A stretch of 64,000 nt of DNA from Escherichia coli (GTDB taxonomy: Bacteria; Pseudomonadota; Gammaproteobacteria; Enterobacterales; Enterobacteriaceae): assembly GCF_003334815.1 (NCBI RefSeq), contig NZ_QOWO01000007.1; one strand, 5' to 3'. The position numbers and the translations under genes are program-made. Positions 5,040 to 8,128 of this stretch are shown here, one piece after another; the stretch's first letter is position 1, and the number at the start of each line of letters is the position of its first letter. A model generated the notes under the pieces. That model ran no database searches, was not told the DNA's origin, and worked only from the letters and a program-made list of their open reading frames with translations.

Positions 5040-5272
5040 TGAGATCCCGTTATTTTTATCAATTTTTGTTGCTATCCGATCGCAAAAAAGCCACGTCATA
5101 TGATCAGATAATTCTGATAATGATAGACGCTATTTAACACTTCACACGGTTTGTATACGGAAAAGCATTTTGCTTTTTGTATTCAATTTAGACAGAATTT
5201 TATTAATCATTTCAGGGTAATGGGGTGATGAGATGTTGCGTAACAGGGCCAGAAGGCTAGACTACAAAATAA

Positions 5273-6277
<1,005 letters not shown>

Positions 6278-6372: not shown

Positions 6373-6494
6373 GCAGGTGAATGCAACGTCAAGCGATGGG
6401 CGTTGCGCTCCATATTGTCTTACTTCCTTTTTTGAATTACTGCATAGCACAATTGATTCGTACGACGCCGACTTTGATGAGTCGGCTTTTTTTT
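6373..6494 (+). ncRNA. fnrS: FnrS small RNA
   Basis: Sequence GCAGGTGAATGCAACGTCAAGCGATGGGCG...GCCGACTTTGATGAGTCGGC plus T8 terminator; zntB-dbpA spacer as in K-12. Confidence 0.85.
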
Positions 6495-6551
6495 GCCTGT
6501 TATTTATCAGCGTCTACCCTTTAAGAGTCCACCCAATGACCAGAGGGAAAT

Positions 6552-6725
6552 ATGACGACACTTATTTATTTGCAAATTCCTGTCCCTGAACCGATTCCTG
6601 GCGATCCTGTTCCAGTGCCCGATCCGATCCCTCGCCCGCAACCCATGCCTGACCCACCACCCGATGAAGAACCGATTAAATTGTCGCATCGTGAGCGTAG
6701 ATCTGCGAGGATACGCGCCTGCTAA
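6552..6725 (+). CDS. candidate 57-aa proline-rich small protein (MTTLIYLQIPVPEPIPGDPVPVPDPIPRPQPMPDPPPDEEPIKLSHRERRSARIRAC)
   Basis: ATG with GAGGG 5 nt upstream; intact frame to TAA; below ORF-track length cutoff; function unknown. Confidence 0.4.
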   Translation: MTTLIYLQIPVPEPIPGDPVPVPDPIPRPQPMPDPPPDEEPIKLSHRERRSARIRAC

Positions 6726-6754
6726 CTTTGCGTCGATGACCACGAGAATAGATT

Positions 6755-8128
6755 GTGACCGCTTTTTCTACCCTGAATGTTTTGCCTCCCGCCCAACTCA
6801 CGAACCTTAATGAGTTGGGTTATTTAACCATGACGCCGGTGCAGGCCGCCGCGCTTCCGGCGATCCTTGCCGGAAAAGATGTTCGCGTGCAGGCGAAAAC
6901 CGGCAGCGGCAAAACGGCGGCTTTTGGCCTCGGCTTGTTACAGCAAATTGATGCGTCGCTATTTCAAACCCAGGCTTTAGTGCTGTGTCCTACGCGTGAA
7001 CTGGCGGATCAGGTGGCAGGTGAATTGCGTCGGCTGGCGCGTTTTCTGCCAAATACCAAAATTTTGACGTTGTGCGGTGGTCAACCGTTCGGTATGCAGC
7101 GTGATTCGTTGCAACATGCGCCGCATATTATCGTGGCAACGCCGGGGCGTTTGCTGGATCACCTGCAAAAAGGCACGGTATCACTGGATGCGTTGAATAC
7201 GCTGGTGATGGATGAGGCCGACCGCATGCTGGATATGGGATTTAGCGATGCCATTGATGATGTCATCCGTTTTGCGCCTGCATCTCGACAGACGCTTCTG
7301 TTTTCGGCAACCTGGCCGGAAGCCATCGCTGCAATCAGCGGACGAGTGCAACGCGATCCTTTGGCGATTGAAATTGACTCAACAGATGCTTTGCCACCCA
7401 TTGAACAACAATTTTATGAGACATCCAGCAAAGGCAAAATTCCTCTGTTGCAACGGTTATTAAGCTTGCATCAGCCATCCTCTTGCGTGGTGTTTTGCAA
7501 TACCAAAAAAGATTGCCAGGCTGTCTGCGACGCGCTGAATGAAGTAGGGCAAAGTGCATTGTCATTACACGGCGATTTGGAGCAACGCGATCGCGATCAG
7601 ACCCTGGTACGTTTTGCTAACGGTAGCGCCCGTGTACTGGTCGCGACTGATGTTGCTGCGCGTGGTCTGGATATTAAATCGCTTGAGCTGGTGGTGAACT
7701 TTGAGCTGGCGTGGGACCCTGAAGTTCATGTACATCGCATCGGTCGTACAGCTCGTGCAGGAAATAGCGGTCTGGCGATCAGTTTCTGTGCTCCGGAAGA
7801 AGCACAGCGGGCCAATATCATTTCTGACATGTTGCAGATAAAACTTAACTGGCAAACGCCGCCAGCTAATAGTTCCATTGCGACGCTGGAAGCAGAAATG
7901 GCAACGTTGTGTATCGATGGCGGGAAAAAAGCCAAAATGCGCCCGGGTGATGTATTAGGTGCACTGACAGGAGATATCGGGCTTGATGGCGCAGATATTG
8001 GCAAAATCGCCGTGCATCCGGCGCATGTCTATGTCGCGGTCCGTCAGGCTGTTGCTCATAAAGCATGGAAACAGTTACAGGGCGGGAAGATTAAAGGAAA
8101 AACGTGCCGGGTGCGGTTATTAAAATAA
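6755..8128 (+). CDS. dbpA: ATP-dependent RNA helicase DbpA (DEAD-box)
   Basis: 457 aa, GTG start; motifs AKTGSGKT and VMDEADRM. Confidence 0.9.
   Translation: MTAFSTLNVLPPAQLTNLNELGYLTMTPVQAAALPAILAGKDVRVQAKTGSGKTAAFGLGLLQQIDASLFQTQALVLCPTRELADQVAGELRRLARFLPNTKILTLCGGQPFGMQRDSLQHAPHIIVATPGRLLDHLQKGTVSLDALNTLVMDEADRMLDMGFSDAIDDVIRFAPASRQTLLFSATWPEAIAAISGRVQRDPLAIEIDSTDALPPIEQQFYETSSKGKIPLLQRLLSLHQPSSCVVFCNTKKDCQAVCDALNEVGQSALSLHGDLEQRDRDQTLVRFANGSARVLVATDVAARGLDIKSLELVVNFELAWDPEVHVHRIGRTARAGNSGLAISFCAPEEAQRANIISDMLQIKLNWQTPPANSSIATLEAEMATLCIDGGKKAKMRPGDVLGALTGDIGLDGADIGKIAVHPAHVYVAVRQAVAHKAWKQLQGGKIKGKTCRVRLLK

Follow-up and report, generated by a model that had tools for sequence, protein, structure and literature searches.

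A proline-rich open reading frame (ORF) of 57 codons lies between the terminator of the small RNA (sRNA) FnrS and the helicase gene dbpA in the 64,000-nucleotide (nt) stretch of Escherichia coli DNA analysed here (assembly GCF_003334815.1, contig NZ_QOWO01000007.1), the whole of which is called the window below. This ORF is a real, translated gene for a small protein, ynaL, which was annotated before and is thus known rather than new. The explanation that we favour, and consider probable without regarding it as settled, is that ynaL is an independent gene, that selection maintains its alternating X-Pro peptide, that this peptide most likely acts in trans, and that any effects on dbpA are secondary. 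The initial annotation of the region had put forward another role, that of a leader in which ribosome stalling would couple dbpA expression to elongation factor P (EF-P) or proline status. This is unlikely to be the primary function of the gene, as the peptide is kept under selection in lineages without adjacent dbpA, variants with PSP in place of the PPP triplet exist, and no RNA switch was found in the region between the two genes.

Identity and expression of ynaL

The location given in the initial annotation is correct. The FnrS terminator occupies positions 6467-6494, the 57-codon frame runs from ATG 6552 to TAA 6725 as described, and dbpA, directly downstream, begins with GTG 6755, 29 nt past the ynaL stop. 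The GAGGG Shine-Dalgarno (SD) sequence was likewise found at 6543-6547, at a spacing of 4 nt and not of the 5 nt proposed earlier. It is kept as GGAGGG, AAGGAGG or CAGGAGG in all genera and is strong in all out-group loci (coordinates of the features are collected in Table 1).

The product, MTTLIYLQIPVPEPIPGDPVPVPDPIPRPQPMPDPPPDEEPIKLSHRERRSARIRAC, carries the RefSeq name 'proline-rich small protein YnaL' in the sampled RefSeq E. coli genomes and in the MG1655 record, and 5391 of 5426 complete E. coli genomes contain the ynaL region. An hmmscan search matched the Pfam family PF23677 (YnaL) over the full length of the protein (residues 1-57 against model positions 1-57, E=2.2e-40, 136.8 bits), and the same family is carried by all 120 of the 120 homologues among the matches listed. 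At the protein level, YnaL was detected in 2018 by immunoblot after chromosomal tagging with the sequential peptide affinity (SPA) tag, the tagged protein being seen in ordinary lysogeny broth (LB) cultures, and ynaL was positive in a ribosome-profiling screen with tetracycline-arrested ribosomes (VanOrsdel 2018, PMC6001520). That study was also the first to report a small protein between fnrS and dbpA, and it pointed out the adjacency to dbpA (PMC6001520); in its coordinates, ynaL spans 1,409,308-1,409,481 of MG1655. It is the sole paper found in our literature search, in which no paper giving a function or a link to EF-P, dbpA regulation or FnrS was found. Given the RefSeq annotation, the match to PF23677 and the detection of the protein, the ORF is not unannotated. 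Of the unannotated microprotein suggested at first, the microprotein therefore stands, borne out by protein detection and by selection on the peptide, and the word unannotated has to be given up.

Selection on the peptide

Conservation was followed through 43 loci of Enterobacteriaceae and Erwiniaceae, 35 of which came from the scan of a genome collection covering about a dozen Enterobacteriaceae genera, together with 8 out-group loci. Both comparative checks that had been proposed for this ORF gave a clear result: the search for frameshifts or stops in relatives found the frame intact in 43/43 loci, and the analysis of synonymous sites returned codon periodicity and ratios of nonsynonymous to synonymous substitution rates (dN/dS) of 0.04-0.15, i.e., purifying selection on the peptide. 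The ungapped 39-codon core, compared over 34 distinct DNA sequences, has entropies of 0.19, 0.18 and 0.85 bits at the first, second and third codon positions and a dN/dS of 0.15; for comparison, 120 dbpA codons taken from these genomes give 0.03. Within codons 18-40, the amino acids are fixed and the third positions vary by 1-1.9 bits, and selection in this part of the gene acts on the peptide.

ORFs of 57 codons are common in the window and arise frequently by chance, and the sequence of ynaL is of low complexity, so its length would be compatible with a chance ORF that is not a gene. Conservation rules this out. The frame intact through 43 loci, the low dN/dS with codon periodicity, the conserved SD and ATG and the detected protein effectively refute such an explanation, to which we assign next to no probability.

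The comparison of gene orders adds that the peptide does not need dbpA as its neighbour to be conserved. In Phytobacter diazotrophicus (L040), Mixta (L043), Scandinavium (L044) and Enterobacter sp. BIGb0383 (L046), a stem-loop and a convergent ttcA come after zntB-FnrS-ORF. In Erwinia (L041, L042, L045), ttcA is inverted and lies between the ORF and dbpA, with both ttcA and dbpA on the + strand. The ORF of Erwinia sp. runs directly into an intrinsic terminator (GGCCGG...CCGGCCTTTTTT), and a TATAAT promoter lies ahead of ttcA. Across Enterobacteriaceae and Erwiniaceae, lineages without dbpA included, the X-Pro core has a dN/dS of 0.04-0.08. When the lineages without adjacent dbpA are considered separately, the 24-codon core shows a saturated proportion of synonymous differences (pS 0.74) and a proportion of nonsynonymous differences (pN) of 0.11-0.14, corresponding to a dN/dS of 0.04-0.05. 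Such a low pN despite a saturated pS, where dbpA is not adjacent, indicates that the peptide is selected independently of dbpA. The family itself is a small one: when 1.8 billion representative proteins were searched with a profile, only 35 family representatives came up, which include two further branches.

Composition and predicted structure of YnaL

Proline accounts for 16 of the 57 residues (28%), below the approximately 35% first estimated, and reaches 50% within residues 10-41. The PxP repeats and the PPP triplet described in the initial annotation are both present. Prolines alternate strictly, as (X-P)n, at positions 19-37, and for that reason the PPP at codons 35-37 represents a repeat unit in which X is itself Pro. 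The N-terminal ~15 residues vary freely and the remainder is nearly invariant, with a conserved acidic tract of ~25-30 residues (DPVPxDPVPIPDPIPRPQPMPDPPP). AlphaFold2, with the family alignment, predicts an extended chain with no secondary structure (predicted template modelling score, pTM, 0.23; predicted local distance difference test score, pLDDT, ~90 over residues 21-40), and these predictions are consistent with the X-Pro tract forming an extended, non-globular rod of the polyproline-II type. Conservation of the tract extends beyond the prolines to its X residues (D, I, R, Q, M, D), which hints at a surface for a specific interaction more than at a generic spacer. YnaL would in that case be a rigid proline-rich small protein, or a ligand, acting in trans.

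Changes in the length of the repeat were also encountered. E. coli E69 (L009, 3001-3138) has an in-frame deletion of 11 codons within the X-Pro repeat, and the Salmonella enterica protein P0053 has a duplication of 10 residues (PDPRPHPQPM) at the same kind of site; these in-frame length changes look like frame-preserving repeat slippage.

Invariant blocks ahead of dbpA

In the group comprising Escherichia, Salmonella, Citrobacter, Klebsiella and Enterobacter, referred to below as Escherichia-type, dbpA begins 14-29 nt past the ynaL stop, and its start codon is GTG in every genus, Erwinia included. Since the terminator scan found no terminator-like site on the + strand from 6495 to dbpA, ynaL and dbpA are probably co-transcribed in this group. 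The position of the ynaL stop codon wanders (codons 47, 48 and 58, the last in E. coli), leaving tails such as RAC, RAI, RACL, RACYR and RACRLSAF. Two short-tail forms (L038 and L039) end in ...EEPIKLSR with a stop at codon 47, which in L038 is the double stop TGA TAA, and in both of them dbpA follows ~62 nt further on, so that translation of the tail is dispensable. In Klebsiella, other arrangements were seen as well: in K. pneumoniae (L033) ynaL ends 14 nt ahead of dbpA, and in K. michiganensis and K. grimontii (L030, L031) the ORF, at 109 or 88 codons between stops, extends into the dbpA start.

The 3′ part of ynaL contains two stretches, block A of 19 nt and block B of 21 nt, in which the synonymous sites are invariant in 34/34 distinct sequences, whereas the spacer between block B and the dbpA initiation region is free to vary. 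In these blocks there is constraint at the nucleotide level. Both are absent from every locus without dbpA immediately downstream, Erwinia included. Furthermore, L038 and L039 keep block B with one mismatch as non-coding DNA between diverged flanking spacers; retention of a non-coding block speaks for a cis element and not for a constraint on the peptide. Judging from this distribution, blocks A and B look like a candidate cis control element linked to dbpA. The codons AGA, AGG and ATA, which number among E. coli's rarest, lie in block B, 35-55 nt before the dbpA GTG, and given the nucleotide constraint on the block they are a by-product of it.

Several possible causes of the invariance were inspected. 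One candidate is a CsrA-like motif in block B, where a short GCG/CGC hairpin (GCG-AGGAUA-CGC) would carry GGA in its loop; the stem of this hairpin is broken (GAG) in L038 and L039. A stable or conserved RNA structure at 6660-6780 was rejected, as RNAalifold gives only hairpins of 3-4 bp there and the E. coli folds do not exceed dinucleotide shuffles in stability (z -0.39 and -0.80). A helix between GUCGCA of block A and UGUGAC at the dbpA start is predicted in E. coli and Salmonella; its pairing probability ranges from 0.00 to 0.98 by genus and is near zero in most, and all partner bases are invariant, so that covariation offers no test of it. Mimicry of hairpin 92 of the 23S rRNA, through which DbpA could regulate its own synthesis, was also rejected: 6660-6760 aligned locally with 23S positions 2454-2606 reaches a score of 14 at best, where shuffles average 14.3 and 671 of 1000 are equal or better, and when the whole 23S rRNA is compared with 6660-6760, 296 of 300 shuffles do as well. 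A sigma-70 promoter inside the blocks or on the opposite strand gave 0 consensus matches, and the resemblances to sigma-E, sigma-54 and sigma-28 sites seen by eye are partial and not conserved. In 8 of 34 sequences, the ATG of an overlapping ORF in the +2 frame (6664-6810) is lost, and an antisense ORF (6507-6743) conflicts with the free third positions; neither was retained as a cause of the invariance.

The arrangement also invites a purely translational account, in which the ORF would deliver or unmask ribosomes for a poor dbpA start, the rare codons would slow these ribosomes, and the peptide would be irrelevant. It is in keeping with the GTG and weak SD of dbpA in all genera, with a ynaL stop that is 14-29 nt away or overlaps the gene, and with the three rare codons held by the invariant blocks. 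We regard it as improbable, however. It has no need for a strongly selected peptide with free synonymous sites, and L038 and L039 stop 62 nt before dbpA yet keep block B and the dbpA start, which implies that the passage of ribosomes over block B is not required. In addition, Erwinia dbpA has a GTG-type start of the same kind without the upstream ORF. Strict termination-reinitiation coupling is weakened because the short-tail loci and Erwinia keep the same kind of dbpA start.

A combined possibility, which we mention as a long shot, concerns the Escherichia-type arrangement only. Ribosomes passing the PPP and then blocks A and B, AGA-AGG-AUA codons included, might set the level of dbpA, the blocks serving as an operator bound by a factor. 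If this were true, DbpA, a 50S-assembly helicase acting at the peptidyl-transferase centre, would be tuned by the peptide-bond capacity of ribosomes and EF-P.

Beyond ttcA, the MG1655 annotation places the site-specific integrase gene intR directly next (from ~9244 onward, - strand), which suggests a prophage boundary beside the ynaL-dbpA locus.

EF-P and the leader hypothesis

The PPP triplet is embedded in DPPPD in 106 of the 113 parsed homologues and is replaced by DPSPD in E. albertii and one Citrobacter clade. It provides the consecutive prolines that EF-P-dependent XPPX stalling substrates require, and Asp-flanked polyproline motifs are among the stronger stallers. By analogy with established polyproline stalling, it is reasonable to suppose that the synthesis of YnaL would itself depend on EF-P. 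In the searchable EF-P dataset (EF-P/EfpL profiling supplement), ynaL was not found among the matches listed; these consist solely of the PPI motif in dbpA itself, its ratios being close to 1.

A stalling leader would go further than this, with arrest at the PPP under low EF-P or prolyl-tRNA altering dbpA expression via an RNA switch or Rho termination. The widely kept D-PPP-D context favours such a leader, as does a second PPP that the out-group branch adds two codons ahead of the stop, its proteins ending in ...DPPPHR, ...DPPPHM or ...DPPPYR (Phytobacter, Mixta, Scandinavium, two Erwinia species and an unclassified Enterobacter). The ORF stands 29 nt upstream of a gene with a GTG start and a weak SD, with no terminator between the two, and its run of CCN codons forms a C-rich, G-poor stretch with a C/G ratio of 2.3, above the 99th percentile of the window. 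There are precedents as well: polyproline stalls without EF-P give Rho-dependent polarity (Elgamal et al. 2016, PMC5021804), and Salmonella has the proline-codon leader ORFs mgtP and mgtL (PMC3641672, PMC6460261).

On the other hand, strong purifying selection persists where dbpA is absent at the locus or lies beyond ttcA, which has its own promoter. In the lineages where PPP has become PSP, namely E. albertii and the Citrobacter clade, the rest of the gene is unchanged, and three of the PSP-type Citrobacter proteins are without any PP. The PPP codons are 93-101 nt away from the dbpA start, RNAalifold yields no consensus switch over this distance, the candidate long-range helix is inconsistent, and the folds, as given above, do not stand out from shuffles. 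The C-rich stretch is situated upstream of the stall site, with a C/G ratio of ~0.9-1.05 downstream of it. Every X residue of the tract is conserved, and not the prolines alone, and ynaL does not appear among the listed matches in the EF-P dataset. Neither an alternative RNA structure nor a Rho-utilization (rut) site, as expected of a leader, was found in the ynaL-dbpA region, and the ORF does not occur solely ahead of the gene to be regulated (L040, L043, L044 and L046 on the one side, L041, L042 and L045 on the other). At the level of sequence, the comparative evidence weakens the leader hypothesis for ynaL, and we consider a stalling leader an unlikely explanation of the gene. A polarity effect on E. 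coli dbpA involving EF-P and Rho could still accompany ynaL translation in a secondary capacity, by analogy with the precedents named above.

Upstream region and FnrS

In 42 of the 43 loci, FnrS is the immediate upstream neighbour of the ORF, and in L039 the contig starts too near the ORF to show upstream DNA. The Rfam family RF01796 was matched upstream in L038, L040, L041 and L043-L046 and aligned in 35/35 genome loci. In every locus with upstream DNA, through both families, the ORF starts ~55-70 nt past FnrS. At E<=1, FnrS is also the only Rfam family found in the region.

Between FnrS and the SD, a putative weak sigma-70 promoter of ynaL was noted, whose -35 hexamer TTGCCT overlaps the end of the T-tract of the FnrS terminator. 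Its hexamers and spacing are conserved in most Enterobacteriaceae, the -10 hexamer following the pattern TAnnnT (TACCCT, TACGCT, TATTTT, TACCTT). The Citrobacter loci L023-L025 carry a 9-nt deletion in the spacer of this putative promoter. As an alternative to its promoter role, CTACCCT could pair with the GGAGGG(T) of the SD, which, judged by complementarity, would mask the SD in transcripts reading through from FnrS.

It is also conceivable that the ORF is tied functionally to FnrS and not to dbpA, either by read-through or by anaerobic co-regulation. FnrS is the sole constant neighbour of the ORF, the downstream side having been rearranged at least twice, and the putative -35 hexamer lies within reach of the FnrS terminator, whose T-tract it overlaps. 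The adjacency may nevertheless reflect nothing else than an undisturbed intergenic region beside zntB, the FnrS terminator is strong, and YnaL-SPA was detected in ordinary LB cultures. A naive duplex of FnrS with the ynaL-dbpA mRNA over the whole length, which is a crude method, gave an energy worse than that of shuffles. We therefore give a function linked to FnrS a low probability.

Other small ORFs were found nearby. One of 47 codons, starting with MQRQAMGVALHIV, lies inside FnrS (6381-6524, +). A metagenomic record (P0146) describes a protein of 106 residues that fuses FnrS-derived sequence to a YnaL-like ORF; this fusion is almost certainly a gene-calling artefact. Further upstream, at 5233-5280, RefSeq annotates a 15-codon ORF (label ydaN, product 'protein YnaN') 13 nt before the zntB GTG at 5294, which might be another tiny upstream ORF and a candidate leader.

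Table 1. Positions in the window of ynaL, its subfeatures and the neighbouring elements.
Feature	Position	Strand	Description
zntB	5294-6277		GTG start 5294
FnrS sRNA gene	6373-6490	+	Rfam RF01796, 134.8 bits
FnrS intrinsic terminator	6467-6494	+	8-bp stem and T8; terminator scan and Rfam alignment
Putative weak sigma-70 promoter of ynaL	6493-6520	+	TTGCCT (6493-6498), 16-nt spacer, TACCCT (6515-6520); inferred
ynaL Shine-Dalgarno sequence	6543-6547	+	GAGGG, separated from ATG by AAAT (4 nt)
ynaL coding sequence	6552-6725	+	ATG 6552, 57 sense codons, TAA 6723-6725
Deeply conserved alternating X-Pro core	6591-6662	+	codons 14-37, EPIPGDPVPVPDPIPRPQPMPDPP-P, peptide-selected
PPP triplet	6654-6662	+	CCA CCA CCC, codons 35-37, D-PPP-D context
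Block A	6672-6690	+	CCGATTAAATTGTCGCATC, 19 nt; codons 41-46 and 1 nt (CCG ATT AAA TTG TCG CAT)
Block B	6699-6719	+	AGATCTGCGAGGATACGCGCC, 21 nt; codons 50-56 (AGA TCT GCG AGG ATA CGC GCC)
dbpA initiation region	6743-6770	+	conserved CGAGA (weak SD), 7 nt, GTG 6755, nucleotide-invariant GTGACCGCTTTTTC
dbpA (ATP-dependent RNA helicase DbpA)	6755-8128	+	GTG start; Escherichia-type downstream neighbour

Favoured explanation and significance

Returning to ynaL as an independent small-protein gene with a trans-acting peptide, the pieces could be assembled as follows. The gene forms a unit equipped with a strong SD and, just past the FnrS terminator, with what is probably a weak promoter for it alone; in several genera, a separate stem-loop or terminator closes the unit. 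In the Escherichia-type arrangement, the 3′ third of the gene would run across the two invariant blocks, which would belong to the upstream control region of dbpA. The PPP would very probably make YnaL synthesis dependent on EF-P, and an effect on dbpA would then be one of secondary polarity or coupling and not the raison d'être of the ORF.

Some points weigh against this explanation. The trans-acting role is deduced from selection alone, and a nascent peptide acting in cis would also be expected to have conserved amino acids behind an N-terminus that varies. An X-Pro repeat of low complexity may, moreover, owe its conservation to something besides specific binding. The tight and conserved juxtaposition of ynaL and dbpA, with the GTG and weak SD of the latter, and the location of the blocks within the ORF leave room for coupling in cis. 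The consensus promoter scan stayed below threshold at 6493-6520, with 0 sites. Finally, dbpA is not present at the locus in L040, L043, L044 and L046, an absence that refers to the locus only.

With the trans-acting peptide as the preferred explanation, the emphasis moves from a 'dbpA leader' to a proline-rich peptide in its own right. Many small proteins of E. coli that have been validated still await a function, YnaL among them. What is new is the recognition of the X-Pro peptide as an independently selected unit that has FnrS as its constant neighbour across two families and, within the literature searched, the invariant blocks of 19 and 21 nt that are linked to dbpA and overlap the 3′ third of the ORF. 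To our knowledge, the regulation of dbpA is essentially undescribed, and blocks A and B offer a concrete candidate control element for this ribosome-assembly helicase.

Comparison with known systems

Several characterized systems resemble ynaL in part. The leader ORFs mgtP (of mgtCBR) and mgtL (of mgtA), as well as the polarity seen without EF-P, share with it consecutive proline codons in a short upstream ORF on the same strand, a likeness of sequence only. However, mgtP and mgtL are parts of long leader RNAs in which alternative stem-loops or rut sites are defined, and they occur solely before the gene that they regulate, whereas ynaL shows no conserved alternative structure, stands alone in lineages without dbpA, and conserves ~25 residues and not a few proline codons.

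With the arrest peptides SecM, TnaC and MifM, YnaL has in common a variable N-terminus, ~40 conserved C-proximal residues, which is approximately the length of the exit tunnel, and a coding position just upstream of another gene. In ynaL, however, neither the stop position nor the C-terminal residues show conservation (RAC, RAI, RACRLSAF, stops at codon 47, endings of the DPPPHR type), the tail is conserved at the level of nucleotides and not of the peptide, and four genera have the ORF without dbpA downstream.

The spacer of TonB, (Glu-Pro)n(Lys-Pro)n, is comparable in another respect, since it is also an alternating X-Pro repeat predicted to be extended. Homology to TonB was rejected: the NCBIfam TonB model NF008084 scores 20.8 bits (E=2.9e-4, cutoff 315) over residues 9-43 only, the Pfam TonB_N match has E=0.75, and both matches are compositional. 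YnaL differs from TonB in being a stand-alone peptide of 57 residues that has neither the transmembrane nor the C-terminal domain of TonB. The closest counterpart is the YnaL family itself (PF23677), to which the gene studied here is identical in sequence and position, with no differences, as its founding member.

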